Origin: an uncultured Bacteroidales bacterium
Lineage (GTDB): Bacteria; Bacteroidota; Bacteroidia; Bacteroidales; VadinHA17
Direction: 5' to 3'
Length of the DNA stretch: 64,000 nucleotides
Assembly (NCBI GenBank): GCA_963717685.1
Contig: OY970346.1
Span: 2,736,419-2,800,418 of the forward strand
The position numbers and the translations under genes were made by a program. The notes beneath the pieces were generated by a model. That model was given only the letters and a program-made list of their open reading frames with translations, did not search any database and was not told where the DNA came from. Of the stretch, positions 2,303-32,900 are shown one piece after another; the first letter of the stretch is position 1; each line of letters starts with the position of its first letter.

Positions 2303-4774
2303 ATGAAAAGGCAGATCGCGGTTGTCATAATAATAATCTTAGCCTTGCCAGTCACCGGGCTTCATGCCCAGAGTCGGGCAGGCAGGTTACCTTTCCGGTC
2401 GACCTGCTATGCAGGCAAAAATGTCAACCAGATTTATATCCCGCCTCCAAAGGAATTCCTTTCAAAATCAGGAAGCAAAGGCGGAGCTACAATAACAATG
2501 TATTATTCCGGTGATTTTTCAGCCGCAGCGGTCAATGCCATAAACTTTTCCGCTTCGGTTCTTGAATCGATTTTGCCTTCTGATACGCACATCTCAGTAA
2601 CGGCTATCTGGGGTGCAATAACTACCAGCGGTGTTCTTGCCCAGGCAGAGGCAACAGACTTTATTCCCGGATGGGAAATAAATGCCCAGGTGCCATATGC
2701 ATATTATCCGGCTTCACTTGCCGAGAAGATTTCAGGCAAAAGTTACACAACCCTTTCTGAAGGTGGTGATATCCTTCTTTATGTCAACAGCACTGTAAAC
2801 TGGTACCTTGGAACAGATGGAAAGACCCTGTCATTCCAGTATGACCTGGCTACTGTTGCCATGCATGAAATAATTCACGGGCTTGGATTCTTCAGCAGCA
2901 TGGATGTATCAGGGTCGACTGGATCCTATGGCATCTCAAATGTGCCGGTTGCTTTTGACACATTTATCGAAAATCTTGCAGGCAAGAAACTTACAGATAC
3001 TCTTTTGTTTGCAAACCCTTCTGCAGCGTTAAAGGCTGCTCTTACGAGCGGGCAGGTATATTTTGATGGTCCCCTGTTAAAGAATTATTCCGGCGGGAGA
3101 GCAAAACTGTATGCTCCAACAACGTACGATTCGGGCTCGAGCATCTCCCATCTTGATGAGAACGCTTACAGCAATACGGTAAATGCCCTCATGACTCCTG
3201 CAATTGATATGGGCGAGGCAATACATAATCCGGGGCAGTTTACAATGTCAATGCTTGCCGATATGGGATGGGTGAATACAAGGATAACACATAATCAGCC
3301 TAAAGACACGGAGGACTCTCTTTCGATGATCACTCTTTCAGCTTCAGTAAGCTCTGATACAATCTATAATCATAACAGTGTGACTCTCATCTGGTCATAT
3401 AACGGTTTTTCCAATACTGATTCGACCGTCATGACATCTCCACAGTCGGATAATAATTATATTGCCACCATTACCGTACCATCATACGATTCCCGCCTGG
3501 AATATTATATTTCAGTCATGGACTGTTTTGGCAGAGTATATAATTTGCCCTCTTATGTTCAGAAGAACCATTTTTCGATTTATATAGGAACCGATACCGT
3601 AAAACCGGTAATAGAACATACTCCGCTGACCTACTTTTTTGAAGGTGTTGATACTATTGGATTCAGGGCAGCCGTGACGGATAACCTTGCCGTAGACACC
3701 GTATATGTGGAGTACAAGGTTAATGATGGTACTGTTTTTCAGATGGGGCTATATTCAATGGGAGGAGATATGTACCGGAATACACTTAATGCCAGGAATT
3801 TATCATTAAGCGGGGGAGATTCAATAAATTACAGGATTGTTGCCATCGACAAGGCAGCCTCGCCTAATAAGGCAACATTGCCTTCCCAGGGATGGTACTC
3901 GATAAAGATCGAATCGCTGAATAGTGTTGCTTCCAGTTATCAGACTGATTTCACCAATGCATCTTCGGATTTTCTGATGGATGGCTTTTCAATATTTAAA
4001 CCATCGGGGTTCTCAAGCTACGGTCTCAATACTCCGCATCCTTATCAAAGCCCTGAAGAAGACGGAGACAGCATTGGATATATTGCAACGCTCAGGACTC
4101 CACTGAAATTTGATTCGAACGGTATGACAATCAGCTATAAGGAGGTCGTCCTTGTAGAACCGGGAGAATCGGGATCGACTTTCGGATCATCAGATTTTTA
4201 TGATTATGTCATAGTTGAAGGCTCAAGGAATTTTGGAGAATCCTGGTTTTACCTTTGCGACGGGTATGACAGCAGGTATTGGGATAATTGGCTGACTGCC
4301 TTTAACAGTTCAACCGACTCGGCGGGTAATTCCACATTTGTACCTGATGAAACTCTTCTTCTGAAACATTCAATCTTTGCCAAAGTCTCCGGTGATATCT
4401 CTGCCGGGGATACGCTGATGGTCCGGTTCAGATTATTCTCTGATCCATACGTACATGGATGGGGCTGGTTTATTGAGAACCTTGATATTGAGCCACTCAT
4501 AGATCAGGTTGAGAATATTACCTATTCATCACTGGTAATGTACCCGAATCCCGGGAATGGTCTTATTACGATCAGAGATGAAAGTGATGCCGGCTTCGGG
4601 CCTTTTGCTTATAGCGTCTATAGCTCTTCTGGCACATGCCTGATCACCAATGAATTCACGGGCGGAAACGAACTGATTATCAATATTTCAAATTATCCTG
4701 CAGGGCTGTATTTTATTATCCTGTACCGGAGCGACGGGGTAAGGGCATTGAAATATACCCTGATAAGGAAATAG
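2303..4774 (+). CDS. Secreted HExxH zinc-metalloprotease-like protein with a T9SS C-terminal sorting domain
   Basis: Signal peptide MKRQIAVVIIIILALPVTGLHAQ. HEIIHGLGF at nt 2864-2890. C-terminal ~80 aa (VMYPNPGNGLITI ... GLYFIILY ... KYTLIRK) fits the Por/T9SS type A tail. Confidence 0.8.
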   Translation: MKRQIAVVIIIILALPVTGLHAQSRAGRLPFRSTCYAGKNVNQIYIPPPKEFLSKSGSKGGATITMYYSGDFSAAAVNAINFSASVLESILPSDTHISVTAIWGAITTSGVLAQAEATDFIPGWEINAQVPYAYYPASLAEKISGKSYTTLSEGGDILLYVNSTVNWYLGTDGKTLSFQYDLATVAMHEIIHGLGFFSSMDVSGSTGSYGISNVPVAFDTFIENLAGKKLTDTLLFANPSAALKAALTSGQVYFDGPLLKNYSGGRAKLYAPTTYDSGSSISHLDENAYSNTVNALMTPAIDMGEAIHNPGQFTMSMLADMGWVNTRITHNQPKDTEDSLSMITLSASVSSDTIYNHNSVTLIWSYNGFSNTDSTVMTSPQSDNNYIATITVPSYDSRLEYYISVMDCFGRVYNLPSYVQKNHFSIYIGTDTVKPVIEHTPLTYFFEGVDTIGFRAAVTDNLAVDTVYVEYKVNDGTVFQMGLYSMGGDMYRNTLNARNLSLSGGDSINYRIVAIDKAASPNKATLPSQGWYSIKIESLNSVASSYQTDFTNASSDFLMDGFSIFKPSGFSSYGLNTPHPYQSPEEDGDSIGYIATLRTPLKFDSNGMTISYKEVVLVEPGESGSTFGSSDFYDYVIVEGSRNFGESWFYLCDGYDSRYWDNWLTAFNSSTDSAGNSTFVPDETLLLKHSIFAKVSGDISAGDTLMVRFRLFSDPYVHGWGWFIENLDIEPLIDQVENITYSSLVMYPNPGNGLITIRDESDAGFGPFAYSVYSSSGTCLITNEFTGGNELIINISNYPAGLYFIILYRSDGVRALKYTLIRK

Positions 4775-4916: not shown

Positions 4917-7900
4917 ATGAGCCTGATAAATAATATTCTTGGTCTCTTTCTGGGTAATAAGTACGAAAGGGATATGAAAGAGATAAATCCTTTTGTGGAA
5001 AAAACCCGGCTTGAATATGAAAAACTTTCTAATATAACAAATGATGAGCTCAGGGATAAAACACTCGAACTGAAAAAGGAAATACTTGAATATATTGAAA
5101 ATGATGAGAATGAAATCAAGTCGATAAAGGCACAGGCCGAAGCCGAAGAGGATGTCTCGCTAAAGGAGGAACTTTATAACAAGATTGATAAGGCTGAGAA
5201 GAGTATTGATGAAAAGCTTGAAAGGATCCTTGACGAATGTTTACCAGGGGCTTTTGCAATCGTGAAGGAGACAGCAAAGCGCTTTAAGGAGAATAGCGAG
5301 CTTGAGGTCACCGCAAGGCAGTATGACAGGGATCTGGCCGCTACCAGGGAAAGTATAACAATTAAAGGCGACAAGGCGTATTGGAAGAACCGTTGGATGG
5401 CTGGAGGCAATGAGATACTCTGGGACATGGTTCACTATGATGTCCAGCTTTTTGGAGGTGTCGCGCTTCACAAGGGAAAAATCGCCGAAATGGCGACAGG
5501 CGAGGGCAAAACAGTAGTTGCAACTTTGCCGGTGTTTCTCAACGCACTGGCAGGCAGAGGTGTTCATATAGTCACGGTCAATGATTATCTTTCAAAACGC
5601 GACTCCGAATGGATGGGACCTGTTTATGAATTCCACGGGCTTTCAGTCGATTGCATCGATAAACATCAACCCAATTCTCCTGAGAGAAGAAAGGCGTATG
5701 ATGCAGATATAACATTCGGGACAAATAACGAATTTGGCTTCGATTACCTGAGGGATAATATGGCCCTTAACCCGGAAGACCTCGTTCAGCGCAAGCACCA
5801 CTATGCCATAGTCGATGAGGTCGATTCAGTACTGATAGATGACGCAAGGACGCCGCTTATTATTTCGGGGCCTACTGCCAAGGGCGAAAATCAGCAGTTC
5901 GACGAGCTCAAGCCAAAGGTTGAAAAACTGGTGAGTGCCCAGAGAAAGCTTGTCAACCAGATACTTGCAGATTCAAAAAAATTGATCAACGAAGGAAAGA
6001 ACGAAGAGGGAGGATTGCTTCTTTTAAGAGCTTACAAGGGACTTCCAAAGAACAGTGCCCTTATAAAGTTTCTCAGCGAGGAAGGCAACAAAACGCTTCT
6101 TCAGAAAACAGAGAATTTCTATATGCAGAATAACAGCAAGGAAATGCCCAAGGTTACTGATGAGCTTTATTTCATTATCGATGAGAAGGTAAATACAATA
6201 GAAATGACGGATAAGGGCATTGACCTGATTTCAACATCCGTCGAAGATGCAAGCTTCTTCATCCTTCCTGATGTCGGCTCCAAAATTGCCGACCTGGAGA
6301 AATCAGACAAAAGCGAAAGGGAAAAATTAAAGCTTAAGGATGAGCTTCTTGAGGATTATTCAATTAAATCCGAAAGAGTTCATACAATGACCCAGCTGCT
6401 TAAAGCATGGACTCTCTTTGACAAGGATGTGGAATATGTGGTCATAGATAACAAGGTAAAGATCGTCGATGAGCAGACAGGAAGGATACTTGAAGGACGA
6501 AGGTACTCTGACGGCCTCCACCAGGCAATTGAAGCAAAGGAAAATGTAAAGGTGGAAGCGGCCACACAGACCTATGCAACAATTACTCTGCAGAATTATT
6601 TCAGGATGTACCATAAGCTTGCAGGAATGACAGGTACCGCAGAGACCGAAGCCGGAGAATTCTGGAATATTTATAAGCTTGATGTTGTGGTAATACCGAC
6701 AAATAAGCCGGTCATAAGAACTGACCGTGAAGATATTATTTATAAGACAAAGCGCGAGAAATACAATGCAGTCATCGATGAGATATCCGAAATGTACCGG
6801 CAGGGGAGGCCCGTCCTGGTCGGTACAACATCGGTAGAGATATCTGAGCTTCTGAGCAGGATGCTTAAGATGAAAGGATTGAAACATAACGTTCTTAATG
6901 CAAAGCTTCACCAGAGAGAAGCAGAAATTGTGGCTGAGGCAGGAAAAACCGGAACGATTACCATAGCCACAAATATGGCGGGCCGTGGAACCGACATCAA
7001 ACTGACGGAAGAGGTCAGAAATGCCGGCGGTCTGGCAATTATAGGGACAGAAAGACATGAATCGCGCAGGGTTGACAGACAGCTCAGGGGCCGTTCCGGC
7101 CGTCAGGGCGATCCCGGATCCTCACAGTTTTTCGTTTCACTTGAGGATGAGCTAATGAGGCTGTTCGGATCTGAAAGGATTGCCGGCATCATGGACAGGC
7201 TTGGACTGAAGGATGGGGAAATGATTCAGCACCCGATGATCACAAAGTCAATTGAAAGGGCACAGAAGAAAGTCGAGGAGAACAACTTCGGGATACGCAA
7301 GAGGCTTCTTGAATATGATGATGTGATGAACTCACAGAGGGAAGTGATATATAAGAAACGGCGCCATGCCCTACTTGGTGAAAGATTAAGAGTGGATGTG
7401 GCGAATTCAATGTACGATGTCACAGCATCGCTCGTGGATTTATATCACAGGGAAGGAGATTATGAAGGATTTGAGCTGGATCTTATCAGATCATTCTCAA
7501 TGGATTCTCCGGTGTCTCAGGAGTCCTTTCTGAAAGAATCCATTGATAATATCACTGAAGCGGTCTATGCAAAGGTCATGGAGACCTATAAGCGAAAGGT
7601 CGAGACAATATCACAGCAGGCTTATCCTGTTCTTAAAGATGTGTACGAACGGATGTCACATGCCTATGAAAATGTGGTAGTTCCTATTTCGGATGGAGTG
7701 AGGGTATTCCAGGTAATCACTAACCTGAAGGCCACTGCCGAATCGGAAGGGAAGGAATTGTCCAAATCAATTGAAAAAACGGTAGTCCTTGCCACAATAG
7801 ATGAAGAATGGAAGGAGCATCTGCGGGAAATGGATGAACTGAAGGAATCTGTTCAGAATGCAACATATGAACAGAAAGATCCGCTTTTGATATATAAATT

Positions 7901-8240
7901 TGAATCTTATGAGCTGTTCAAGAAAATGCTCGACAAAGTAAACAAGGATCTGTCAAGTACGCTCATGAAGGGCCATATACCTACGCAGGAGCCTGAACAG
8001 GTGAAGGAAGCACAGCGTCGAAGGCAGGTTGAGAATCTGAGGACATCCAGGACTGATTCAGTCCAGACATCAGGGCCTTCAGGAGGAGGACCTGACAGGG
8101 AGAAAAAAACTGAGCCTGTACGCGTTGACAAGAAAGTCGGAAGGAATGATCCATGTCCATGCGGGAGTGGCAAGAAATACAAGAACTGTCATGGTATTCA
8201 GCATACTTCTCCTGGCGGCCAGGATTCAAGGCAAGTCTAG
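4917..8240 (+). CDS. secA: Preprotein translocase ATPase SecA
   Basis: MATGEGKT Walker [30 protein letters not shown] and the C-terminal zinc motif [14 protein letters not shown]. Confidence 0.98.
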
Positions 8241-9135: not shown

Positions 9136-9708
9136 TTATTTGACTTTTTGATCGGATGACCCTGAGTTTATCAATTCCAGGTAATGAATGATCTCGTCCA
9201 GGTAATTATCGAGCATGACGGGTTTCTTCAGTTCCAGCATCAGATCGAAATTTTGTTCTGTTGGTTCAGAATCAAACAAACCAACTTTGAAGCCCGAACG
9301 GGAAAGAGAAGAAATATATTTCAAGGTCAGCAGCTTATCAAAATTAATGTCGATAAGCACATCAAATCTTGTTTTGATAAAAGATTCCGTATCAGCTGAA
9401 TCAGGAATGTAAAAGAGATCTATATCATTGTTCCTGATGCAGGTCAGATACCTTATAGCCGTGTACTGGTCAGGAAGTTCCTTTCCCTTATAATATCCAA
9501 GGATCTTTACATCAATATTACGGTCATGCATTTTCTGAAAGAACCTGGAAAGGCAGCTAAAATCCTGGGTTTTTGAGGCATCCCAGACAACTCCAATTGA
9601 CCTTACATTACTTAAATTTGAAAAACTTACCTTCCTGCTGTTTTTTGCAAGCTTCTTTTTGAGAATTGAATTCCCTATTTTTAATCTTGTTTTTCCGAAT
9701 AATTCCAT
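9136..9708 (-). CDS. Hypothetical protein, cotranscribed with ligA and dapA
   Basis: 190-aa ORF with an ATG start and a 6-nt gap to dapA. I recognised no motif. Confidence 0.6.
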   Translation of the reverse strand: MELFGKTRLKIGNSILKKKLAKNSRKVSFSNLSNVRSIGVVWDASKTQDFSCLSRFFQKMHDRNIDVKILGYYKGKELPDQYTAIRYLTCIRNNDIDLFYIPDSADTESFIKTRFDVLIDINFDKLLTLKYISSLSRSGFKVGLFDSEPTEQNFDLMLELKKPVMLDNYLDEIIHYLELINSGSSDQKVK

Positions 9709-9754: not shown

Positions 9755-11773
<2,019 letters not shown>

Positions 11774-11802
11774 TTAGAATTACTGAATGTGTCAAAAGTG
11801 TG

Positions 11803-12939
11803 TCAGTCCCAGACGCCCCTGATCTCATAACCGCATTTATTGCATTTTCCTTTTGTAAGGTTTCTTGAAGTTATGGTGTATCCCTGCCTTCCTATTACCA
11901 CAGCTCCGCATGATGGGCATTTTGTATCAGATACTTCACTGCCCGGCACATTTCCCGTATATACGAACTTAAGACCTTCCGATGAAGCTGCTTTAACTGC
12001 TTTATCAAGGATTTCCAGAGGTGTCGGAGGTAACTGCTCAAGCTTGTACATTGGGTAGAACCTGCTGAAATGAAGCGGTGTTTCCCTGAATCCGTTGCCG
12101 GCAAGCCATTTGCACATTCTGCTTATTTCATCGATATTGTCAGTCCATTGCGGAACAACGAGATAGGTAATTTCAAGCCATACACCCATGTCTTTATAGA
12201 TCTTAAGGGAATCCAGCACTGGCTGAAGCTTTCCACCGGTAAGCCTGAGATAGGTGCTGTCGTTAAATGACTTAAGGTCAATGTTCGCTGCATCTGTAAC
12301 CGTGCATATCTTCTTCAGCGGCTCAGGGTTGATATAGCCGTTGGATTTAATAATGTTCTTTATTCCGGCTCTTCTGGCAAGGACAGATGTATCATAGTCA
12401 TATTCAAAGAATACGACAGGTTCAGTGTAAGTATAGGCAATTGACCTGCAATTGCTTTTGGCCGCACCCTCCACAACCATTTCAGGCATCAGGTCATAAT
12501 TCCTAGTCTTTTCCGGACTTATCTGGGAAATCGACCAGTTCTGACAATTCAGGCATACCATATTGCAACCTGCAGTTGCTATTGAATAGGCTCTTGAGCC
12601 CGGGTAAAAATGATAAAGCGGCTTTTTCTCCACCGGATCAATATTTACCGAACAGGGATTGCCATAGGCCATTGTCCACAGCTTTGAGTTATGCACCCTG
12701 CGGTTATTGCATTTACTTAATTCTCCCTCCCTGAGAACACATTCGTTGGGGCATATCCTGCACATAATTCCCCTTGGGGTCTCTTCCTGGAACATCGCTT
12801 CCTTCCTGTAGATATCCTCTTCGCCTGAGACAATGTCAGCCACTATGCGCGTGGACGGAAGAAACGTGATACCAGCTGAGAAAGCAAGGCATTTTTTCAG
12901 AAAGAGGCGCTTGCCATTGTCGAAATTCTTTCGTCTCAT
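11803..12939 (-). CDS. amrS: AmmeMemoRadiSam-system radical SAM enzyme with a Tat-like N-terminal leader
   Basis: CNMVCLNCQNW (CX3CX2C), N-terminal CRICPNEC...C and C-terminal CPSCG...CNKCG. The track ORF starts at TTG 13008, overlapping the upstream gene. ATG 12939 (MRRKNFDNGKRLFLKK...) is the first ATG and lies 31 nt after the upstream stop. Confidence 0.85.
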   Translation of the reverse strand: MRRKNFDNGKRLFLKKCLAFSAGITFLPSTRIVADIVSGEEDIYRKEAMFQEETPRGIMCRICPNECVLREGELSKCNNRRVHNSKLWTMAYGNPCSVNIDPVEKKPLYHFYPGSRAYSIATAGCNMVCLNCQNWSISQISPEKTRNYDLMPEMVVEGAAKSNCRSIAYTYTEPVVFFEYDYDTSVLARRAGIKNIIKSNGYINPEPLKKICTVTDAANIDLKSFNDSTYLRLTGGKLQPVLDSLKIYKDMGVWLEITYLVVPQWTDNIDEISRMCKWLAGNGFRETPLHFSRFYPMYKLEQLPPTPLEILDKAVKAASSEGLKFVYTGNVPGSEVSDTKCPSCGAVVIGRQGYTITSRNLTKGKCNKCGYEIRGVWD

Positions 12940-12970
12940 TTTTCCAGGTATCAATAATGAAATAAAACTA

Positions 12971-15394
12971 CTATTTGTTGGCGTTTGTGCCAAATAGAAT
13001 ACCAGCAAAAATCAGGCCGGTAAGTAAAAGAATCGAAGTCCTTATCCCCAGTACTGGTATTGCCGCGCCTGAAATCAGAATGAAGCCCAGGGCTGAACCT
13101 GCAAGATCGGCACTGTACACAGCAGACGGATGTGACCCGGCTTCGTCATGGATTGTCATTTCACGATAAATGTGGCCTGTAAGGAATGATGGCAGGAGGG
13201 TTGAGCATACTATGATGGCTATTGAGGAGGCGGCTCCCCGTTCATGCAGTATCCAGCCAAGGGATACTGCGGTAAGCACATAATAGAGAGCAAGAATCAG
13301 AGATTTTACTTTAAGAGGAATCGGGTCCATGAATTTCAGTTTGGTTCCGGACCCGGCAGCAAGACCGGCCATAAGTGATGCCAGTATCAGACCTGTCAAC
13401 TGATACATATTACCGGCAGTGAGCTGAATCAGGAACAGGGCGATTATTTCAAATCCCGCCAGTGCAGCAGCGCTGAAGTACATAGTTATATTTCTCCTCC
13501 GGATTGCCAGCCCGGGAACTGCGAAGGCCAGGATCATTAAAATTATTGCAGGAGTCTTCTCATGTATGGTCCTGCTTAAGTTATACTCCTGGAAATGAAA
13601 GGCGGCGATGGGAAAATCTCTTCTGTTAGGGCTGACAGCCTTATTCATTATGGAAGCAACCTGTGCTGATTTTGCCTCAACCAGATCATCAGCCAAGAAA
13701 TCAGGACCGACATACACATTTTTAATTCCTCTTTCTTCAGCCAGTTTGCAAAAAGAAACAGAGATATCATCGTCCGAAGCTATAAAATATAATTTTTGCC
13801 CCATTACAGGCTTTACGTGCCTGAATATTCCCGAAAGGCTGTTATATATTGAGGAATACAACTCTACGGATTCATTATTGAGATAATCGTCGCCCGGGCC
13901 GGGAGAGCACATAAAAACACCTCCTTTGACTAGCCTGTTTCGGGCATCATTGAAGAATTCAGTAATATAATACCTGTCAAGCGAAAGTGTCGATGGCGGA
14001 GGAACGAGCAGGATAATGGCATCCATTTTTTCACCCAAAGCCCTGAGATATCTGAAAGCATCTCCCTTCTCAATGTTCAGCAGTTTTGGGGCGTTACTGA
14101 TCTCTGTTATGGCTCTCTTTATAAGTTCCGGATCTCTTTCAATGAATGTGATTTTACTGATATGGTATTTTGTAATTTCGGAAAGATGAGATTGCAGATT
14201 ACCCGAGATCATCAGGATCTTTTCAGGATACGGCCTCTGAAGCAGGGCATAGTGAATGTCTTCCTCTCTTTCGGCTGCATCATCATGATACGCGATCAGC
14301 CTCTGGTTATAAAAATAAGCCGGTTCGCCCGCATATTCTCCCCTGGTGACGTTACCGTAGGGAGTATCCTTTGTACTCATGACTTTGACTCCAGACAGCA
14401 ACAGTTGCCTGAAAAAAATATCCGGATCTGTCAGAACGACGTATGACAGAATAACGGCAAAGATGATCCTGGCAATGGTTTTATTCCTCCTGCTCATGAT
14501 ATAATATGTAAGCAGGGAATAAGCCAGGGATAGCAGGGCGATTGTCAGAAATATTTTATAATTGGAGAACAATCCGGATGTGATTACTGAAAGAATCATG
14601 CCCGAAATAGCTGATCCGGTCGTTTCAACTGAAAAGGACCTTCCGGGAGCAGCGCCTGAAGCATTTCTGGCGGCCATTGTAAGCTTGATGAAGGAGAAAC
14701 CTGACACAAGGCAGAATGGCAGGAGCACGATAAATGTGAATATCATGCTGGTAAGGAAGGAGGGTGTTTCTCCTGGCTGAAGGAAAAATCTTGAGAACAG
14801 GATCAGAAGCAGGAGAGAGACAAATGGTGCTGAGGCAAATATTATGGATATTTTTGCCTGATCATTAAGTCCCGATTTGCGTGCTATAGCCGCACCTGAT
14901 GAAGAGGCAATAAGCCAGGATCCAAGGAACACTCCCGAGATAAGCTCATAGCCTCCTGCAATATTCATTATTTCCCTCATAAAAAGGATCTGAATAGAGG
15001 TGCTGACAAATCCAACTATGAACAGGTTGGCATTAATTGAAACCTGGTTCAGTGACAGATTGCCGGTTTCATGCAGGACATTGCCGGAAGATGAGAATAT
15101 CTTGCCATAATAGGAAAAATGCCAGATAAAATGGAATATTCCTATAATAGTGGCTGCGGCGCCAATTTCAACATGCCACTTCAGCAGGGATTTCAGGAAT
15201 GGGACGTTCCATTGATAGTTTATCTGAAGCGCCATGAAGACGCCGGCAAGTGCCGTAAAGAGAAATGTCAGTGCGAGAAAGATATTCCAGACCTTTTTGT
15301 GAAAGACAAGTGAATAAAAACCTGCCTTGTAAAAAGAAAAGCTCAGGAGATATAATAATGAAACAGTGAGGCACGTCCCAGCGACATGGTACAT
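12971..15394 (-). CDS. Polytopic membrane protein with a central spermidine-synthase-like (class I MTase fold) domain
   Basis: 807 aa. There are many hydrophobic helices at aa 1-330 and 615-805. The central soluble segment (TPYGNV, KILMISGNLQ, ITFIERDPEL, DAIILLVPPPS) resembles the SpeE fold order. The ATG lies 2 nt after the upstream stop. Confidence 0.75.
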   Translation of the reverse strand: MYHVAGTCLTVSLLYLLSFSFYKAGFYSLVFHKKVWNIFLALTFLFTALAGVFMALQINYQWNVPFLKSLLKWHVEIGAAATIIGIFHFIWHFSYYGKIFSSSGNVLHETGNLSLNQVSINANLFIVGFVSTSIQILFMREIMNIAGGYELISGVFLGSWLIASSSGAAIARKSGLNDQAKISIIFASAPFVSLLLLILFSRFFLQPGETPSFLTSMIFTFIVLLPFCLVSGFSFIKLTMAARNASGAAPGRSFSVETTGSAISGMILSVITSGLFSNYKIFLTIALLSLAYSLLTYYIMSRRNKTIARIIFAVILSYVVLTDPDIFFRQLLLSGVKVMSTKDTPYGNVTRGEYAGEPAYFYNQRLIAYHDDAAEREEDIHYALLQRPYPEKILMISGNLQSHLSEITKYHISKITFIERDPELIKRAITEISNAPKLLNIEKGDAFRYLRALGEKMDAIILLVPPPSTLSLDRYYITEFFNDARNRLVKGGVFMCSPGPGDDYLNNESVELYSSIYNSLSGIFRHVKPVMGQKLYFIASDDDISVSFCKLAEERGIKNVYVGPDFLADDLVEAKSAQVASIMNKAVSPNRRDFPIAAFHFQEYNLSRTIHEKTPAIILMILAFAVPGLAIRRRNITMYFSAAALAGFEIIALFLIQLTAGNMYQLTGLILASLMAGLAAGSGTKLKFMDPIPLKVKSLILALYYVLTAVSLGWILHERGAASSIAIIVCSTLLPSFLTGHIYREMTIHDEAGSHPSAVYSADLAGSALGFILISGAAIPVLGIRTSILLLTGLIFAGILFGTNANK

Positions 15395-15396
15395 GG

Positions 15397-17064
15397 CTAT
15401 TTCTTGTTTTCTTCGAGGACCTTACCCTCGTAAATATAGATGTCGGCAGTTTTCCATCCGTCCCATCCGATGCCGGCCTTATCCCTCGACGTGTATCCAA
15501 GGAACTCTTCAAGCGTCCAGCCGTATTCGATGGGAACCTGAGGCAGCATTGTCCCTGACCTGAAATCTTTCTTGATATATATCCCGTGCTTGCCCAGAAC
15601 TATCTCATTAATATTGTTTATTTTCTTCATCGGTCCTAGTACTGTGATCTCAACTTCGATTTTATCATATTCCTGCTTTGTGAGGGGAGAGAAGCGGGGA
15701 TCTTCAAAAGCCGACGAAAGTGCAGATTCCTGTACAACACTATAAAGCGGATCGGACGAGACAAACCTGCCTATGCATCCTCTTAGCACGCCGTTTTCCT
15801 TCAGAGTCACAAAAGCGCCGTACTGTTGTTTAAGAGCCTCAGGGATCCTGCTTTCATCAATGGAGTACTTTTTATTATCGAAAAGCTTTGATTTGATGCT
15901 GTTCCTTGCAATTGAAAAGAGCATTTCTTTCTCATTTTCAGTAAAGCTCATCTCCTGGGGAATAGTCTCATTAACTCTAGGGCCGCCTTTTTCTTCCGCT
16001 TTTGCAGTGGTATTTTCAGACAAGGTTGTGCTTTCAGAATTGCTGTCATTTAATCGTTCAGGCTTGGTTTCCTCAGCTGAAATATTTTTCCCTTTAGCTG
16101 AATAGTTAATCTCTTCCCGGTTCTTCTGACCGGTCCCTGAAACGCCCTCCTTTTCTACCAATGCTATAGCGTTGTAACCAACTACCTGATCTTTATCCCC
16201 ATAGGGTGAATCGCCTGAATTGGAATAATCGATTTTTCTGAATTCAAGGTTCCTATTTCCTTGCGAAAGATAGAGAATTGTCAGTCCTGAGGTCCATCCG
16301 CACATGCTGGTAACCAATCCCGGGATATTTCTTGAAGCGTTACTCTCAAGCGTCGATAGAAAAACTTCTGGATCACTTGAAATGATGGCATCAGCCGTGC
16401 GCTTATCGTTATCAATTGCATCCTTATATGCAGGATAATGCGAAAAATCGCTGCTGATTACGAATAAATTATCGGGTGTGAAATATGGTTTTAATGCCTC
16501 AGCAATTCTCCTGATCACGGATGGATCATTCGTCCCGATTATAATGGGGACTATTTTCTGAGCTTTAGTATAATAATATTGAATAAAAGGGACCTGCACT
16601 TCAATACAATGATCCTGTATGTGAGCGTCTTCCGGATAGTCAAAAACCCTGTTTTCATTTTTCAGTTTTGCAGCGATTTCCCTGTTGACAGTCATTCTGC
16701 CTAACGGCGTGATGTAATCTCCAGAACTATAGACTGATGCGCCATCGAACGCCATGATATGGCTGGAGCCAATTATAAAGATGTTCTTATACCCTGCATC
16801 TTTTGGCGTAACGGAGAAACCCGCGGCTGCAGTATTCCCTGAGAATACATACCCTGCATGGGGAGTAATGATTGCCCTGACAGCCCATCTGGCATGGATT
16901 TTTTTGCAACCGGCAAACATCTTCGCCATATCCCTGAGAAGCGTATCCTTGTTTCCAGAATAGAATTTGTCTGCTACATAAGGCTGGCGGTCAATTTGTA
17001 TATTCTGAGACTGAAGTTCCATGATGCTGAGAATTGATAACAGGAAAGTAATTACGGTGCGCAT
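15397..17064 (-). CDS. Fusion of Memo-like (AmmeMemoRadiSam protein B) and AMMECR1-like (protein A) domains
   Basis: Memo motif IITPHAGYVFSG is N-terminal. AMMECR1 motif GAFVTLKENGVLRGCIGRF is C-terminal. A ~80-aa Ser/Glu/Lys/Asn-rich linker separates them, and the N-terminus is hydrophobic (MRTVITFLLSILSIM). Confidence 0.88.
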   Translation of the reverse strand: MRTVITFLLSILSIMELQSQNIQIDRQPYVADKFYSGNKDTLLRDMAKMFAGCKKIHARWAVRAIITPHAGYVFSGNTAAAGFSVTPKDAGYKNIFIIGSSHIMAFDGASVYSSGDYITPLGRMTVNREIAAKLKNENRVFDYPEDAHIQDHCIEVQVPFIQYYYTKAQKIVPIIIGTNDPSVIRRIAEALKPYFTPDNLFVISSDFSHYPAYKDAIDNDKRTADAIISSDPEVFLSTLESNASRNIPGLVTSMCGWTSGLTILYLSQGNRNLEFRKIDYSNSGDSPYGDKDQVVGYNAIALVEKEGVSGTGQKNREEINYSAKGKNISAEETKPERLNDSNSESTTLSENTTAKAEEKGGPRVNETIPQEMSFTENEKEMLFSIARNSIKSKLFDNKKYSIDESRIPEALKQQYGAFVTLKENGVLRGCIGRFVSSDPLYSVVQESALSSAFEDPRFSPLTKQEYDKIEVEITVLGPMKKINNINEIVLGKHGIYIKKDFRSGTMLPQVPIEYGWTLEEFLGYTSRDKAGIGWDGWKTADIYIYEGKVLEENKK

Positions 17065-17135: not shown

Positions 17136-17594
17136 TCAGATCAGAACTATTGATTCCTTAAGGATCTCGCCTTTGTCATCCGTTCCGTATATTTTTATGC
17201 CAAGGCTCACTGTAGGAGTTCCAATCATATCTATTATAGGGCTAAGGGCCTCTTTCAGGTCTTCGACTTCCATGCTGTCGAATTCTTCGATGTTGAAATA
17301 AATGTGGATCATCAGTACGCACTCAGGTTCCTTTATCGAGCAAAGGGCCTTGACAATTTTTGCAAGCCATATTGATGAAGCCGTGTTAAAATATTCAAGA
17401 TTGAACCGGAGGTTAGTGGTACGCCTGGGATCTTCAGCATATTTAACTATCCATTTCAGGATATTCTCATAAAGCTCAACTGCATTTTCAGGGATCGATC
17501 TTCCTGAGAAAATCAAGTCTCCCGTCATTTTATTCAGATCAATCTGCGGAGTCTTGCTTGTCGGCTCAAGGAATATATTTTTAAGTTCCATCAT
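17136..17594 (-). CDS. SiaC-like / DUF1987 family protein
   Basis: The region from MMELKNIFLEPTSKTPQIDL...LIFSGRSIPENAVELY...LEYFNTASS matches my recollection of DUF1987. The track ORF extends to a TTG at 17786. A tandem ATG sits at 17594/17591, preceded by a -7 box at 17640-17647. Confidence 0.7.
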   Translation of the reverse strand: MMELKNIFLEPTSKTPQIDLNKMTGDLIFSGRSIPENAVELYENILKWIVKYAEDPRRTTNLRFNLEYFNTASSIWLAKIVKALCSIKEPECVLMIHIYFNIEEFDSMEVEDLKEALSPIIDMIGTPTVSLGIKIYGTDDKGEILKESIVLI

Positions 17595-17639
17595 GTTCAC
17601 CAAATGTCTGTCCCCCTTATCAACGAAATTCGCTGAATC

Positions 17640-17647
17640 CAAAAATA
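17640..17647 (-). promoter_or_regulatory. -7 promoter box (TATTTTTG on the minus strand) for the DUF1987 gene
   Basis: The plus strand reads CAAAAATA, an exact TAnnTTTG on the minus strand, 46 nt upstream of ATG 17594. Confidence 0.4.
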
Positions 17648-17799
17648 TAATAACTTTTTCATTATTTCCCCTAACTTCATCAAAAAGAATTATCAGATGG
17701 TCAAATTTTTCGGTCTGTTTGCATAAACAAATTACTGCGGGACAATTATGCAGGCGGGTTTTTGATGTTGCTTTGTGATATCTCAATATTTTAAAATAT

Positions 17800-26601: not shown

Positions 26602-28026
26602 TTAATTCCCTATGCTGATGCTTCTTATATAGTCGAAAATAATGCTTGCGAAACCGATAAAAAATATACCTGCCACACAGATTATAAGTGCTGACCTTGT
26701 CGGGAAATCGCATTTGAATCTGGCGATGGGTTCATCATTTTTATTTATAAACATTGCTTTTACAACCAGCAGATAATAGTAAAGTGAAATTATTGTATTC
26801 AATACCGCAATGATAATCAGCGGATAGAATCCTCTTTGTGCTGCAGCCGTGAACAGGAAGAATTTTCCAAAAAAACCGGCCACAGGAGGAATTCCTCCGA
26901 GTGAAAACAGGGAGAGCGTCATTATCAGGCTCAGCTTCGGATTGGTGTGGTAAAGGCCGTTGTAATCGCTTATGTCTTCTTTCCCTGTTGCATTTGAGAT
27001 TGCGGCGACAACTCCGAAGGCGCCCAGGTTTGAAAATATATATACAAGTATGTAGTATATTACTGAAGCCATCCCAAGCTGATTGCCGCCAATTATCCCG
27101 ACAAGTATGTACCCTGCCTGAGATATTGATGAGAAAGCAAGAAAGCGCTTGATATTCTGTTGCCTTATGGCAAAAAGATTTCCAATGGTCATCGTAAGAA
27201 CTGATGTTACAAATATCGCTTTCTGCCATGTCCAGATGATCATCGGGAATATGGTATAGAGTATAATGACGAAGATGAATAGCGCAGCTCCCTTGGATAT
27301 GACGGAGAGAAATGAAGTGATGTTCACAGGTGCTCCTTCATATACATCTGCAGTCCAAAGGTGGAAAGGAACCACGGAAATTTTAAATGCCATGCCTGCA
27401 AAGAAGAAAATGAATGCCAGTACCTGTAGATTAAATCCGGGAACGAGCCTGGCAACCTCATTGAAATACAGAGAGCCTGTAGTGCCATAGATCATGGATA
27501 ATCCGTAAAGCATAATCCCTGATGATAATGATGACGTCAGGATCAGCTTAATGCCGGCTTCAGCCGATTTATTCCTGTAGCGTTCAAACGCGGCAAGTGC
27601 CGCTAAAGGAATGGTGGCCAGCTCAAGGCCTAAATAAAACATCAGGAAATGCCCTGATGAAATCATAAAATCCATTCCCACGACTATTGAAGCAATAAGA
27701 AAGAAATATTCGCTAATCCTGTCCGAATTCTCATCTTTTCTGAGCCAGGAAACCGACTGGATCATGACAATCAGCACGCCAATATTCAGTATGTTTTTCA
27801 TTAAGCTTGTAAGTGCTGATGACACATACATGCCGCCAAAAAGCGTGCTGTGATACTTTGACGGAAGAAAGCCGGCAACCGTCAGGATGGCAAACAGAAC
27901 AACAGGGAACAATATCCTCGCATTCTTCCTGCCCGGACCCAGGAATATCTCAGCCATCAGAATGAGTAATGCAGCTGCTGAAAGAAGCAGTTCATGACGC
28001 ATTAATAAAAGACTTTGCAAATTCAT
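26602..28026 (-). CDS. nuoN: NADH-quinone oxidoreductase subunit N
   Basis: HLWTADVYEGAP motif in a polytopic antiporter-like protein. Confidence 0.93.
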   Translation of the reverse strand: MNLQSLLLMRHELLLSAAALLILMAEIFLGPGRKNARILFPVVLFAILTVAGFLPSKYHSTLFGGMYVSSALTSLMKNILNIGVLIVMIQSVSWLRKDENSDRISEYFFLIASIVVGMDFMISSGHFLMFYLGLELATIPLAALAAFERYRNKSAEAGIKLILTSSLSSGIMLYGLSMIYGTTGSLYFNEVARLVPGFNLQVLAFIFFFAGMAFKISVVPFHLWTADVYEGAPVNITSFLSVISKGAALFIFVIILYTIFPMIIWTWQKAIFVTSVLTMTIGNLFAIRQQNIKRFLAFSSISQAGYILVGIIGGNQLGMASVIYYILVYIFSNLGAFGVVAAISNATGKEDISDYNGLYHTNPKLSLIMTLSLFSLGGIPPVAGFFGKFFLFTAAAQRGFYPLIIIAVLNTIISLYYYLLVVKAMFINKNDEPIARFKCDFPTRSALIICVAGIFFIGFASIIFDYIRSISIGN

Positions 28027-28058
28027 ATTTCAATTATACCTGTAAATAATAGTTCAAA

Positions 28059-29564
28059 TCAGAATGGGTTCACTGCAAGTATCTTGTCAATAATAGGCTG
28101 CATGCTTGTCCCTATCATGGAAGAGAGCCAGAATGGTGCCAGTCCTATTGAAGCCACAAAGGTTATCAGGGTCAGCGCCGATAGCTTCTCATACCATTTT
28201 GCATCATCAAAGTGCCCGTAGTGAGTGTTGCTGGCCGGACCCAGAAGCAAAGTTCCTATGACTCTCAGGATGTAGACAGCAGTTATCACTATTGACGAGA
28301 TGGCAACAATTGTAACCAGTCTGTGAAACAAATCCGGATGCTGGAAGGCTCCTACGAATATCGTCATTTCTGCAACGAATCCGCTTAATCCGGGCAGACC
28401 TATGGAAGCAAGGCCGGCTATGACGTAACATACCGAGAGGAAAGGAATGATCTTCATCAGGCCTCCCATTTCATTTATCATTCGGGTATGAGTCCTTCCA
28501 TAAAGCATGCCGATCAGGGCAAAGAAAAGGGCTGTCATAAGTCCATGAGATATCATCTGGATAATTGCCCCATTCATCGCTGTCTTGTTCATCATAAGCA
28601 ATGCAAACAGCACAAGACCGCAATGGCTTACCGATGAGTAAGCATTGATATACTTCAGGTCCTTTTGGACAACAGCACCAAATGCTCCGTAAACAACGCT
28701 TATTGAGGTAAGTATGAGGAAGATCCATGACAATTCCCTTGCTGCTTCAGGCATCAGGTAAATTGCCACTCTGAAGGCTCCGTAACCTCCCAGCTTCATA
28801 AGAACGCCGGCATGGAGCATAGAGACAGCCGTTGGTGCAGATGAATGTCCGTCCGGAGACCATGTATGAAAAGGGAACAGAGCTCCGAGGACTCCGAAAC
28901 CCACGAATGTAAGAGGGAAAAACATCCTTTGCGCCTTCATCGGAATAGTATTCTTTGCAACCTCCAGAATATTGAAAGTATGTTTCCCGTTGACCGGAAT
29001 GGAGAAGAAATATATTCCCAGAATGCCTACCAGCAACAGCGCTGAAGCGCCCATCAGCATTAGTGTAAGCTTCATGGCCGAATATTCCTTCGGACCGCTG
29101 CCCCATATTCCGATAAGCAGGTACATGGGTATCACGGCAAGCTCATAGAACAAAAACATTGTGAAAAGGTCGATCGATATGAAGAAACCGAACACTCCCG
29201 TGGCAAGAAGAATAAGAGAAACGAAGAACTCCTTGTTCAGGAAGTTCATTTCCCATGAAGCAAAAACTCCTGCGAATACTACCAGCGATGTAAGTGAAAT
29301 CATTGCAACTGATATCCCATCCACTCCCACAGAATAATGTATATTAAGACTCCTGAACCACATGATATCTTTAATAAACACCATCTGGGCAGTGTTCCCT
29401 GCATTCCGTTCAGTGACATAGAGGACTATAAGAAGTGCGGCCATCATCAACTGCAGGCCCATTCCGATCGCAGCCACCAGCTTCACCTTCCTTATATCCT
29501 TCACGAGCACTATCCCGGCAATTGTCAGCACCGGAATTACAACAAACATGGACAGAATATTCAT
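28059..29564 (-). CDS. nuoM: NADH-quinone oxidoreductase subunit M
   Basis: WSPDGHSSAPTAVSMLHAGVLMKLGGYG motif. Confidence 0.93.
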   Translation of the reverse strand: MNILSMFVVIPVLTIAGIVLVKDIRKVKLVAAIGMGLQLMMAALLIVLYVTERNAGNTAQMVFIKDIMWFRSLNIHYSVGVDGISVAMISLTSLVVFAGVFASWEMNFLNKEFFVSLILLATGVFGFFISIDLFTMFLFYELAVIPMYLLIGIWGSGPKEYSAMKLTLMLMGASALLLVGILGIYFFSIPVNGKHTFNILEVAKNTIPMKAQRMFFPLTFVGFGVLGALFPFHTWSPDGHSSAPTAVSMLHAGVLMKLGGYGAFRVAIYLMPEAARELSWIFLILTSISVVYGAFGAVVQKDLKYINAYSSVSHCGLVLFALLMMNKTAMNGAIIQMISHGLMTALFFALIGMLYGRTHTRMINEMGGLMKIIPFLSVCYVIAGLASIGLPGLSGFVAEMTIFVGAFQHPDLFHRLVTIVAISSIVITAVYILRVIGTLLLGPASNTHYGHFDDAKWYEKLSALTLITFVASIGLAPFWLSSMIGTSMQPIIDKILAVNPF

Positions 29565-29586
29565 AACAGCCTTACATTTTCATTTT

Positions 29587-31509
29587 TTACCAGTACCATA
29601 TAAATATTAAAAGGATAGCCAGGGCAACAGCTCCGGAGACAAATACGAATGCGTATTGCTGAAGTTGTCCTGACTGGAATTTCCGGATCCTGAATGAAAC
29701 GATCTGTGTTGTTGAGGCAATTGAGTTCATCGTCCCGTCAACAATATGACGATCAAACCAGGCAACCGGTTCTGAAATATATCTGAAGATTATTTTTCTG
29801 GTGACAAAAAGATATATCTCATCTATATAAAACTTATGGTATGCCAGCTTATATGTGTATTTAATTGCAGAAACGATTTTTTGAGGGATATCGGTCTCTT
29901 TCCTGTACAATATCGATGCTATGATAATCCCAAAAAGTCCTATAAGGACTGATGGAACCGCAACTGACCATTCAATTCCTGACTCAAGAATTTTCCCGTC
30001 GCTTGTGACAAGTTTATCGAAGGGAATAAATCCTGCAAAGGCAGCTCCGGCTGCAAGGATAACAAGGGGAACTGTCATTACTGCAGGAGCTTCGTGGGGA
30101 GTATGATCATAGCTTCTTTCTTTTCCCCAGAAAATGTTAAAGTAGATCCTGAACATATAAAAAGCGGTCAGCCCGGCAACCAGGTACTCCACGGCAAACA
30201 GGAATTTATTGTGATGGAACGCAGCGGCCAGGATTTCGTCCTTGCTGAAGAATCCCGAGAATGGAGGAATCCCTGCAATGGCAAGACAGGCTACAAGGAA
30301 TGTCAGATGGGTAACAGGAAGGTACTTCCTGAGATTTCCCATGTCTGTCATAAAATTGCTGTGGACTGCATGGATTATTGCCCCTGCTCCAAGGAATAAC
30401 AAAGCCTTGAACATGGCATGAGTGAACAGATGGAACATTGAAGCAGTGAATCCCAGTCCGGCATTTCCTCCGTAGCCGGATACGCCAAGCGCCAGCATCA
30501 TATAGCCGATCTGGGACATGGTGGAGTAGGCAAGAACTCTTTTGATATCTGTCTGAGTGCAGGCGATGACTGCGGCGAACAATGACGTGAAGGCACCTAT
30601 ATATGCCACAATGTTCAATGCGGCCGGAGCCGCCAGGGAGTATACAGGGAACATTCTCGCGACCAGATAAACTCCCGCCACCACCATTGTGGCAGCATGT
30701 ATCAGTGCTGACACTGGCGTAGGGCCCTCCATTGCATCCGGCAACCATATATGGAACGGAAACATTGCCGATTTTCCGACGCCTCCCATATAAACCAGAA
30801 TCATGGACCAGGTTATCACGGAAAACCCGAGAAATGTCTTTCCTGCTGCATTGACAATTGCAGGTCCGGCCGGATCGGTAAGAGTCATAAAATCGAAAGT
30901 TCTGGTATGGTATGAAAGTAACAGGATGCCTATCAGGAAACCCATATCGGCAAATCTTGTCACAATGAATGCTTTTTTTGCAGCAGCCACGGCCGATGGC
31001 TTTTCATAGTAAAATCCGATCAGAAGATATGAGGATACGCCAACAAGTTCCCAAAAAATGTACATCTGGAAGATATTAGGCGCAACGACAAGCCCCAGCA
31101 TCGAAAATGTAAAGAGTGAAAGAAAGGCAAAGAACCGCTCGTATCCCTTTTCTCCTTTCATGTATCCTATGCTGTAGATATGAACCATGAACGAAACAGT
31201 GCTGACTACAATGAGCATCATGACCGAGATGGGATCAAGAAGCACACCTATATCGATGTGGAGCTTATCGGTAAGCGAAAGCCATGTCGTATTGAAAGCG
31301 AGGATTTGCCTGAAGGCCTCATTTACCTTAGGAGTGGCAAAGAAGTATTCATAGGCTGTGAAGAACGAGACAGCCGTCAGAATCGCAAGACCTGCTGTTC
31401 CAAGGAGACCCGAAATCCTTCGTCCTATCTTATGGCCAAACAGTCCCAGAAAAATAAACATAAGGAAGGGGATCAGCAATATCGTTATGGTATATGAAAA
31501 ATTAATCAT
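29587..31509 (-). CDS. nuoL: NADH-quinone oxidoreductase subunit L
   Basis: WLPDAMEGPTPVSALIHAATMVVAGVYL in a 640-aa protein. Confidence 0.93.
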   Translation of the reverse strand: MINFSYTITILLIPFLMFIFLGLFGHKIGRRISGLLGTAGLAILTAVSFFTAYEYFFATPKVNEAFRQILAFNTTWLSLTDKLHIDIGVLLDPISVMMLIVVSTVSFMVHIYSIGYMKGEKGYERFFAFLSLFTFSMLGLVVAPNIFQMYIFWELVGVSSYLLIGFYYEKPSAVAAAKKAFIVTRFADMGFLIGILLLSYHTRTFDFMTLTDPAGPAIVNAAGKTFLGFSVITWSMILVYMGGVGKSAMFPFHIWLPDAMEGPTPVSALIHAATMVVAGVYLVARMFPVYSLAAPAALNIVAYIGAFTSLFAAVIACTQTDIKRVLAYSTMSQIGYMMLALGVSGYGGNAGLGFTASMFHLFTHAMFKALLFLGAGAIIHAVHSNFMTDMGNLRKYLPVTHLTFLVACLAIAGIPPFSGFFSKDEILAAAFHHNKFLFAVEYLVAGLTAFYMFRIYFNIFWGKERSYDHTPHEAPAVMTVPLVILAAGAAFAGFIPFDKLVTSDGKILESGIEWSVAVPSVLIGLFGIIIASILYRKETDIPQKIVSAIKYTYKLAYHKFYIDEIYLFVTRKIIFRYISEPVAWFDRHIVDGTMNSIASTTQIVSFRIRKFQSGQLQQYAFVFVSGAVALAILLIFIWYW

Positions 31510-31534
31510 GGAATATATCTCCTGTGAATTTTAA

Positions 31535-31852: not shown

Positions 31853-31856
31853 ATTT

Positions 31857-32875: not shown

Positions 32876-32900
32876 AATGTTAATTTTTCAGTTCCCGGAA

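Follow-up and report, generated by a model that had tools for sequence, protein, structure and literature searches.

An AmmeMemoRadiSam cassette with predicted export signals and a conserved polytopic membrane partner: a probable extracytoplasmic variant in Bacteroidota and other phyla

In a 64,000-nucleotide stretch of DNA from an uncultured Bacteroidales bacterium (contig OY970346.1 of assembly GCA_963717685.1; the whole stretch is called the window below), the gene of an 807-residue polytopic membrane protein carrying a spermidine-synthase-like (SpeE-fold) domain stands inside an AmmeMemoRadiSam cassette. Such a cassette groups Memo (AmrB), AMMECR1 (AmrA) and a radical S-adenosylmethionine (SAM) enzyme (AmrS). 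From archaea to humans, Memo and AMMECR1 are conserved proteins with links to human disease, and their reaction and substrate are unsolved. The locus raises the question of what a large membrane protein does among these enzymes. A reading made from the letters without database searches (the sequence-only reading) had described the membrane gene as interrupting the cassette; synteny in unrelated contexts and in other phyla points instead to a conserved component of a distinct, exported subclass. We consider it highly probable that the genes encode an exported module in which the membrane protein is a functional partner. That this module is an extracytoplasmic AmmeMemoRadiSam variant, whose membrane protein would link the enzymes to the cytoplasm and supply them with SAM and electrons, appears to us, taken as a whole, moderately probable, the supply of SAM and electrons being its tentative part.

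The cassette and the linkage of the membrane gene

The three genes of the cassette are the following.

15397 to 17064, minus strand: Memo (AmrB) and AMMECR1 (AmrA) fusion gene, 555 residues, with a signal peptide at the N-terminus (TIGR04336/TIGR04335, Pfam Memo and AMMECR1)
12971 to 15394, minus strand: gene of the polytopic membrane protein with a SpeE-fold domain, 807 residues, divergent kin of the proteins named 'fused MFS/spermidine synthase' by NCBI (MFS, major facilitator superfamily)
11803 to 12939, minus strand: gene of the radical SAM enzyme AmrS, 378 residues counted from the ATG (TIGR04337)

The flanking genes had been described from the letters as a Memo-like and AMMECR1-like fusion and a radical SAM enzyme, and the NCBIfam hidden Markov models (HMMs) assign them to the AmmeMemoRadiSam families, all above the cut-off. 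The 555-residue protein is matched by TIGR04336 (AmrB) with 221.2 bits against a cut-off of 26 over residues 26-301, and by TIGR04335 (AmrA) with 162.8 bits against 99 over residues 381-549, whereas the 378-residue protein is matched by TIGR04337 (AmrS) with 344.3 bits against 220. The Pfam domains of the flanking proteins (Memo, AMMECR1 and Radical_SAM) are in agreement with these assignments. Furthermore, the translation of the fusion holds the motifs PHAGY, GSSH, DFSHY, MCG, RGCIG and DPRF, and AmrS carries its CX3CX2C motif as CNMVCLNC, an N-terminal CRICPNEC cluster and a C-terminal CPSC...CNKC ribbon; the motifs first recognized by eye (ITPHAGYVFSG, LRGCIGRF and CNMVCLNC) were all found in the translations. 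By these profiles and motifs the enzyme domains are true representatives of AmrA, AmrB and AmrS, encoded together on one strand with one extra gene between them.

The tight packing of the three minus-strand genes, with gaps of 2 and about 31 nucleotides, was borne out when the junctions were read directly from the DNA. The fusion gene and the membrane gene are joined as TAG-cc-ATG (2 nucleotides), and the stop of the membrane gene at 12971 is followed after 31 nucleotides by the ATG of the AmrS gene at 12939. An AmrS open reading frame (ORF) started at a TTG, reaching 13008 and overlapping the membrane gene, is unsupported, the conserved sequence of the orthologues beginning at the ATG. A sequence scan of the minus strand found no terminator-like site between the three genes. 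A scan for sigma-70 promoters gave background (21 found for 18.1 expected); it is ill-suited to Bacteroidota and was not used. The 807-residue protein is identical to the protein ABSG89_09290 of an NCBI metagenome-assembled genome (MAG), and DNA of the stretch was recovered in metagenome runs from peat and wetland; no RNA run was found to contain it.

A scan of one genome per species yielded 196 relatives of the 807-residue protein, from which 80 loci were kept, all in Bacteroidales MAGs. In every locus extending far enough the order is Memo-AMMECR1, membrane gene, AmrS. The whole region is syntenic across this set, with ffh, argS, a SiaC-like gene, the trio, ligA, a DUF6913 gene and dapA, so that the 80 loci amount to a single lineage and were not accepted as independent proof that the genes are linked. 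By itself, the set would be just as compatible with an incidental adjacency, that is to say with the order of a housekeeping region inherited within one Bacteroidales lineage, and in this respect it proves nothing alone.

The membrane family extends well beyond that lineage. An exhaustive search gave 4,852 cluster representatives at E <= 0.001, of which 1,228 reached E <= 1e-30, in two length classes of about 800-850 and 700-730 residues, the shorter being without the first ~115 residues; the label given by NCBI to relatives of the window protein is 'fused MFS/spermidine synthase'. Seven relatives of about 25-35% identity were looked up, and in six of them (P0142, P0373 from an Acidobacteriia MAG, P0338, P0284, P0355 and P0336) the trio lies in a row, in the order Memo-AMMECR1, membrane gene, radical SAM gene, with different flanking genes each time. 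A metagenome scan seeded with the Acidobacteriia protein then provided 80 further loci, 36 of which were evaluable (at least 2.5 kb on both sides). Within 8 kb of the membrane gene, both AmrS and Memo/AMMECR1 were present in 27 of these 36, one of the two in 7 and none in 2. The arrangement varies among the metagenome loci: the Memo-AMMECR1 gene is divergent, on the opposite strand, in L111, L152, L153 and L159, it lies downstream of AmrS in L100 and L166, and it is split into separate Memo and AMMECR1 genes in L105 and L143. On the contig of L115, an AmrS is 81-93% identical to proteins named from Verrucomicrobiota, so a third phylum, besides Bacteroidota and Acidobacteriota, likely carries the module.

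These results leave very little room for an incidental adjacency. The trio recurs with other neighbours and other gene orders in further lineages and phyla; the chance presence of an AmrS gene in a 16-kb stretch is, by a rough estimate that assumes a genome of several Mb with one or two copies, well under 1%; and protein identities of 25-50% argue against one recently transferred island. We regard this explanation as extremely improbable. Since the linkage survives rearrangement at such identities, the membrane gene should be functionally linked to the Amr genes. The sequence-only reading had named the lack of conserved synteny elsewhere as the result that would make the adjacency incidental; homologues of the 807-residue protein were found to keep the synteny of the cassette in unrelated contexts and in other phyla. 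Judged by gene neighbourhood, the protein is a conserved partner, across phyla, of Amr systems whose enzymes carry predicted export signals.

Predicted export signals and topology

The codons of two N-terminal signals were recognized by inspection of the sequences.

12838 to 12939, minus strand: twin-arginine (Tat)-type leader of AmrS, MRRKNFDNG-KRLFLKK-CLAFSAGITFLPS-TRIVA
17005 to 17064, minus strand: Sec-type signal peptide of Memo-AMMECR1, MRTVITFLLSILSIMELQS followed by QN, a hydrophobic N-terminus ending S/Q (the slash marks the putative cleavage point)

AmrS starts with MRRKNFDNGKRLFLKKCLAFSAGITFLPSTRIVA, and its conserved core begins only after the leader, at CRICPNEC. By motif inspection, the leader consists of G-K-R-L-F-L-K-K, a KR variant of the S/T-R-R-x-F-L-K consensus, of the moderately to weakly hydrophobic h-region CLAFSAGITFLPS, and of TRIVA, in which a basic residue precedes an I-V-A site. 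The combination of SKRDFLKK with a hydrophobic stretch of 12-14 residues was found in 75 of 76 Bacteroidales AmrS, the exception being due to an assembly gap. At the distant loci, the AmrS beside the membrane gene displays SRR, TRR or SKR-x-F/A-L/I in essentially every evaluable case. A strict leader pattern applied to a span of 75 residues gave six misses: four leaders overlooked by the pattern or lying outside the span, one truncated ORF and one control AmrS. The signal of Memo-AMMECR1 is kept in the Bacteroidales orthologues, for example as MRTVFIVLLSIFTIMETFS followed by QN, with the pattern ...IMETFS/QN; signal-peptidase cleavage before Gln is typical of Bacteroidota. Inspection of the distant orthologues also revealed signal peptides, many of them with a lipobox (for example LLPFSGC). 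AmrS thus bears what its motifs define as a Tat-type leader and Memo-AMMECR1 what they define as a Sec signal peptide.

As a control, 120 AmrS, mostly of about 360 residues, were taken from a profile search with the AmrS core, unselected for a membrane-gene neighbour. All except one (119/120) are leaderless, with CxxCPxxC at median position 24, and the sole leader-bearing protein is that of L128, which adjoins the membrane gene. At three leaderless loci (P0442, P0491 and P0449) no SpeE-like membrane gene was found beside AmrS, where LigB, LigB-AMMECR1 or nothing was present. The contig of L115 holds an exported set (lipoprotein-type Memo-AMMECR1, membrane gene, a small gene and Tat-type AmrS) and, directly downstream (9824-12421, plus strand), a leaderless LigB-like-AMMECR1 fusion together with a leaderless AmrS. 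With both gene sets on one contig, this organism should possess a cytoplasmic-type and an exported-type system. In the data sampled here, the membrane gene and the predicted export signals go together. The membrane-associated or envelope site of action that had been suspected earlier is strengthened by the signals on AmrS and Memo-AMMECR1, which had then gone unnoticed.

The membrane protein was modelled with AlphaFold (predicted local distance difference test 83.8, predicted template-modelling score 0.83). The model shows three transmembrane (TM) helices, a disordered linker, six TM helices, the SpeE-fold domain held between two TM helices, and six further TM helices. The soluble domain is therefore preceded by 10 helices (3 + 6 + 1) and followed by 7 (1 + 6), and the earlier count of about 7 and about 6 has to be corrected. 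Its parts are encoded as follows.

15101 to 15394, minus strand: N-terminal 3-TM module, residues 1-98, with helices at 4-24, 29-60 and 65-98 (AlphaFold)
14501 to 15046, minus strand: first 6-TM repeat, residues 117-298 (hhalign and AlphaFold)
13595 to 14425, minus strand: SpeE-fold domain, residues ~324-600, flanked by TM helices 302-321 and 610-630, predicted periplasmic
12992 to 13498, minus strand: second 6-TM repeat, residues 633-801 (AlphaFold and hhalign)

The two 6-TM halves are homologous (residues 117-300 against 631-803, hhalign probability 97.3%, E 1.9e-11, 169 columns), and the core is thus a duplicated 6-TM unit like that of a major-facilitator transporter. Both halves begin on the side rich in Lys and Arg, as counted from the charges, and thus have the same orientation. 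In a diverse alignment of the family the mean number of Lys and Arg alternates strictly from loop to loop, the odd loops having 1.3-3.9 each (about 22.5 in total) and the even short loops 0-1.1 each (about 3.1 in total). The soluble domain stands in an even position, and its two TM helices bear RRNK and RRRN at their far ends. Being on the side poor in Lys and Arg, the SpeE-fold domain should face the periplasm according to the positive-inside rule. Invariant polar residues of the TM parts include Q135, E141, N144, E150, Q657 and D763, beside many glycines.

The whole system could in principle be cytoplasmic, the N-termini being tethers or mis-called starts and the SpeE-fold domain a normal cytoplasmic SAM-dependent enzyme. 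Such a view would be in keeping with general knowledge, SAM-dependent chemistry not being known in the periplasm, and the gene starts are inferred and the leaders judged by motif. However, the leaders show conservation at the protein level across phyla and have the Tat consensus in the correct position; with basic residues in front of one hydrophobic segment, the remainder of the protein would lie outside. The Lys and Arg bias is about 7 to 1 against a domain inside, and the AmrS proteins without a membrane-gene neighbour begin directly at CxxCPxxC. A wholly cytoplasmic system seems to us very improbable.

The SpeE-fold domain, the His-rich module and their proposed working

A SpeE-fold-like core had been recognized in the letters, and the Pfam Spermine_synth model confirmed it with 36.6 bits against a cut-off of 22.9 over residues 380-498. 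In Foldseek, the top 50 matches are all aminopropyltransferases, their target TM-scores ranging over 0.63-0.72 (0.65-0.72 for the best, 1uir, 6bq2 and 1inl among them); a comparison of the family profile with 1uir gave E 4e-28. The models specific for SpeE itself are far from reached (TIGR00417, 28 bits against 249.55; PRK00811, 34.4 bits against 260). When aligned to 1uir through the family profile, the position of the GGG[DE]G loop reads SGNLQS in the window protein and SGG-x-x-G in relatives, and that of the DxxDP motif reads L-V-P-P-P, with both aspartates gone, against N-x-P-D-P in relatives. Within a clade of 120 members, G398, P466 and P467 alone are kept at the loop and DxxDP positions. 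The ribose-binding Glu (E419) and the Asp of the DA motif (D445) are retained. Because the glycine-rich loop and both DxxDP aspartates are lost, the domain is not a spermidine synthase, and these substitutions suggest that it may be without nucleotide binding. The proposal that two proteins of the cassette handle SAM-type cofactors is therefore doubtful for this clade, in view of SGNLQS and LVPPP in its SpeE-like domain. The conserved TPYGN motif, considered as a glycyl-radical site for the activase-like AmrS, was rejected as the ordinary S-x-Y-Q motif of the SpeE N-domain.

In the main rival explanation, which takes up the envelope substrate suggested by the sequence-only reading, the membrane protein serves the substrate and not the cofactor. 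A lipid, a polyamine-like or a lipid-linked molecule would be flipped or exported by it, and the periplasmic SpeE-fold domain would bind or alkylate this molecule ahead of the action of Memo, AMMECR1 and AmrS or following it. This explanation draws on the same linkage and topology as the reading that we favour. Furthermore, distant relatives retain the GGxxG loop, the ribose-binding Glu, the DA motif and one Asp of PDP, by which they could be active transferases, and the lipobox signals would place Memo-AMMECR1 at the membrane surface in many lineages. On the other hand, a periplasmic transferase would itself need SAM or decarboxylated SAM there, the window clade has lost the catalytic and loop residues with the linkage nonetheless fully retained, and the supply of SAM and electrons to a periplasmic AmrS is left unexplained. 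We consider substrate handling rather unlikely, though worth keeping in view.

The N-terminal 3-TM module, which is not found in the class of about 700 residues, has three invariant histidines (H74, H88 and H92), of which H74 and H88 are 14 residues apart on one helix. This is the spacing known from di-haem cytochromes b. Weak DUF4405 matches were obtained for the module in 4 of 13 members (E 0.015). At 36 loci with the ~700-residue class, a two-helix protein of 80-90 residues is encoded between the membrane gene and AmrS. Its invariant residues are R13, W17, H52, H66, Y72 and R77, H52 and H66 being again 14 apart, and 20 members gave sub-threshold matches to Ni_hydr_CYTB (cytochrome b561; 11/20, with E 2.4e-5), Sdh_cyt (5/20) and DUF4405 (2/20). 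Examples of this small gene are L115:6848-7108 (plus strand), L119:10122-10394, L154:10437-10709 and L110:5106-5381. In L101 (153-509, plus strand), the His-rich module forms a separate ORF of 119 residues (HMM E 6e-17), with a short-class membrane gene immediately downstream; with the module separate and in that place, L101 should be a split version of the fused arrangement of the window. A haem-b-like role in electron transfer is put forward for the module and for the small protein as a hypothesis only.

The features of the TM regions bear on another explanation, in which the membrane protein is a mere scaffold or anchor, a pseudoenzyme holding the exported enzymes without any role in transport or redox. 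The degenerate SpeE motifs of the window clade would suit such a part, SpeE-fold proteins generally oligomerize, and the TM parts are matched by no transporter family of Pfam. Nevertheless, 14-17 TM helices, in which many polar residues and glycines are invariant, far exceed the needs of an anchor, a 6+6 repeat is typical of transporters, and the conserved His pairs together with the separate cytochrome-b-like gene suggest a cofactor. A mere scaffold is improbable in our opinion.

We therefore return to a membrane protein that serves the exported enzymes. Turnover of a radical SAM enzyme needs SAM and an electron and, to our knowledge, neither is available in the periplasm. With its transporter-like core, its outside domain of nucleotide-binding fold and its His-rich TM module, the membrane protein is the obvious candidate for the supply. 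In the proposed working, AmrS would fold and gain its iron-sulphur clusters in the cytoplasm before being exported by Tat, Memo-AMMECR1 would be exported by Sec, and both would act at the outer face of the inner membrane alongside the periplasmic SpeE-fold domain. The membrane protein would dock the exported enzymes and connect them to the cytoplasm. Its 6+6 core and its domain of nucleotide-binding fold would deliver SAM, or clear the cleavage products (5'-deoxyadenosine and methionine), and electrons for the reduction of the radical SAM cluster would cross the membrane by way of the His-rich module; the electron role would fall to the separate 2-TM cytochrome-b-like protein in other lineages. 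The substrate would have to be accessible on the periplasmic side, and could be a membrane lipid, an isoprenoid or another envelope molecule. The supply of SAM and electrons by the membrane protein is advanced here as a tentative model. Equally tentative is its fullest form, in which periplasmic radical SAM chemistry would use SAM exported through the 6+6 TM core and handed over by the SpeE-fold domain, with haem-b-like electron transfer.

Several observations weigh against this picture of an exported module supplied through the membrane protein. As regards linkage, the relative P0302, one of the seven looked up, stands alone without the trio, some further members (L083, L137 and L145) have no Amr gene within 8 kb, and in three Bacteroidales MAGs (L033, L055 and L064) AmrS is not directly next to the membrane gene, an unrelated gene of about 2.7 kb standing between them. 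As regards export, the leader of the Bacteroidales AmrS has KR and not RR, and the predicted localization is drawn from motifs and from the positive-inside rule. As regards transport, the TM segments gave no Pfam match, MFS included, even at E <= 10, the window protein gave no NF037959 match at E <= 0.01, and the loss of most of the glycine-rich loop in this clade weakens the idea that the domain binds SAM. Finally, as regards electrons, the cytochrome-b-like matches all lie below the curated cut-offs, the best being DUF4405 with 25.3 against 26.7 bits, and a radical SAM cluster requires potentials far below those of typical cytochromes b. The comparison of the N-terminal module with the small protein was not significant (hhalign probability 2.7%), though the His pairs align; their homology was dropped and the matching His positions are a mere hint.

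Some loci and neighbouring genes are recorded here in their own right. The lone membrane gene of L083 (8001-10526, plus strand, on a 6.2-Mb contig) lies between a TonB-dependent receptor gene and a citrate synthase gene. The intervening gene of L033 (12524-14920, minus strand) is on the opposite strand and encodes a 798-residue protein which, by eye, has the look of an ABC permease of the FtsX/MacB type; in L055 and L064 it was inferred solely from a gap size equal to that of L033. In L173 (8586-9645, plus strand), the AmrS beside the membrane gene was called in two pieces of 146 and 214 residues, which may reflect a frameshift, a pseudogene or an assembly error. The following genes surround the cassette in the window.

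17136 to 17786, minus strand, directly upstream of the cassette: protein with a SiaC-family regulatory phosphoprotein domain (Pfam PF09345, 79.5 bits)
9136 to 9708, minus strand: DUF6913 protein, kept between ligA and dapA throughout the Bacteroidales loci
26602 to 34037, minus strand; 4917 to 8240, plus strand; 2303 to 4774, plus strand: ordinary chromosomal genes, namely those of complex I subunits (three Proton_antipo_M and NADHdh), of SecA and of an 823-residue protein with a type IX secretion C-terminal sorting domain

Conservation of the SiaC-like protein sets in at about residue 66, which makes an internal Met its probable start. Most of the 80 Bacteroidales loci share this gene in synteny, and it was not found with the module in other lineages.

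If the reading of an exported module is right, an unexplained adjacency becomes a testable model for a long-unsolved enzyme system, and this model predicts radical SAM chemistry in an unexpected compartment. An exported and membrane-tied subclass narrows the search for the substrate to molecules reachable from the periplasmic face. Should AmrS truly be active in the periplasm, it would have to receive SAM and low-potential electrons there, for which no dedicated system is known. In its fullest form, the model would make the module the first case of SAM being exported for the use of an extracytoplasmic enzyme, and a direct experimental route to the reaction of Memo and AMMECR1. The analysis also provides a first functional context for a large unstudied membrane family now annotated as spermidine synthase, contrary to its residues.

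Comparison with known systems

By analogy drawn from general knowledge, the His-rich module and the small protein resemble MsrQ/YedZ with MsrP, cytochrome b561 (Ni_hydr_CYTB), DUF4405 and Sdh_cyt proteins in being small TM modules with two His 14 apart, encoded beside redox partners exported by Tat, as is predicted here for AmrS. They differ from these membrane haem-b modules in that their matches are sub-threshold, their haem is putative and their acceptor would be a low-potential radical SAM cluster. For AmrS, the nearest characterized relatives are those of the PflA family (TIGR02493), with which it shares the radical SAM core; its second-best NCBIfam matches are the PFL and YjjW activases, with 62 against a cut-off of 232. 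Unlike them, AmrS has additional N-terminal Cys motifs, a C-terminal zinc ribbon and, in this case, a predicted Tat leader, and no glycyl-radical enzyme gene was found near the AmrS gene of the window.

With SpeE itself (PDB 1uir, 1inl and 3o4f), the window domain shares the fold, including the N-terminal beta-hairpin domain, and keeps E419 and D445. In contrast to SpeE, it lies between TM helices with a predicted periplasmic location and has lost GGG[DE]G and DxxDP. The membrane-bound SpeE-like proteins of NF037959, PRK03612 and COG4262 likewise have a polytopic N-terminal region followed by a SpeE-fold domain. At the NF037959 cut-off of 40 bits, the relatives P0373 (51.6) and P0302 (52.2) pass and P0142 (27.4) fails, and for PRK03612 the window protein has 46 bits against a cut-off of 472. 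The window protein differs from this type by a second 6-TM half after the domain and by the His-rich 3-TM module, and the NF037959 name implies a polyamine enzyme whereas the defining SpeE residues are missing. Matches to PDB profiles and in Foldseek cover the SpeE domain only, no known MFS protein being among them. In the literature searched, neither a function nor a partner was found for the 'fused MFS/spermidine synthase' family.

The closest known system is AmmeMemoRadiSam. A survey of the Memo superfamily by Burroughs et al. in 2019, which is reported to add further gene contexts, may already mention part of the association with the membrane gene. In the literature searched, neither an exported form of the system nor a membrane partner is mentioned, and no established function was found for it. 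The neighbourhood of AMMECR1, ring-opening dioxygenase and radical SAM genes, as well as AMMECR1-dioxygenase fusions, was noted by Balaji and Aravind 2007 (PMC2034487). The window type agrees with that system in the co-location of all three families and in the Memo-AMMECR1 fusion, a known arrangement. It differs in adding predicted export signals (of Tat type for AmrS, of Sec or lipoprotein type for Memo-AMMECR1) as well as the polytopic membrane protein and a cytochrome-b-like module, fused or separate, whereas the sampled leaderless AmrS have neither export signals nor a membrane gene. AmmeMemoRadiSam as such is already known; its exported form and its membrane partner are apparently new, subject to what the 2019 survey holds, and we class the cassette as a variant of that system and not as a categorically new one.

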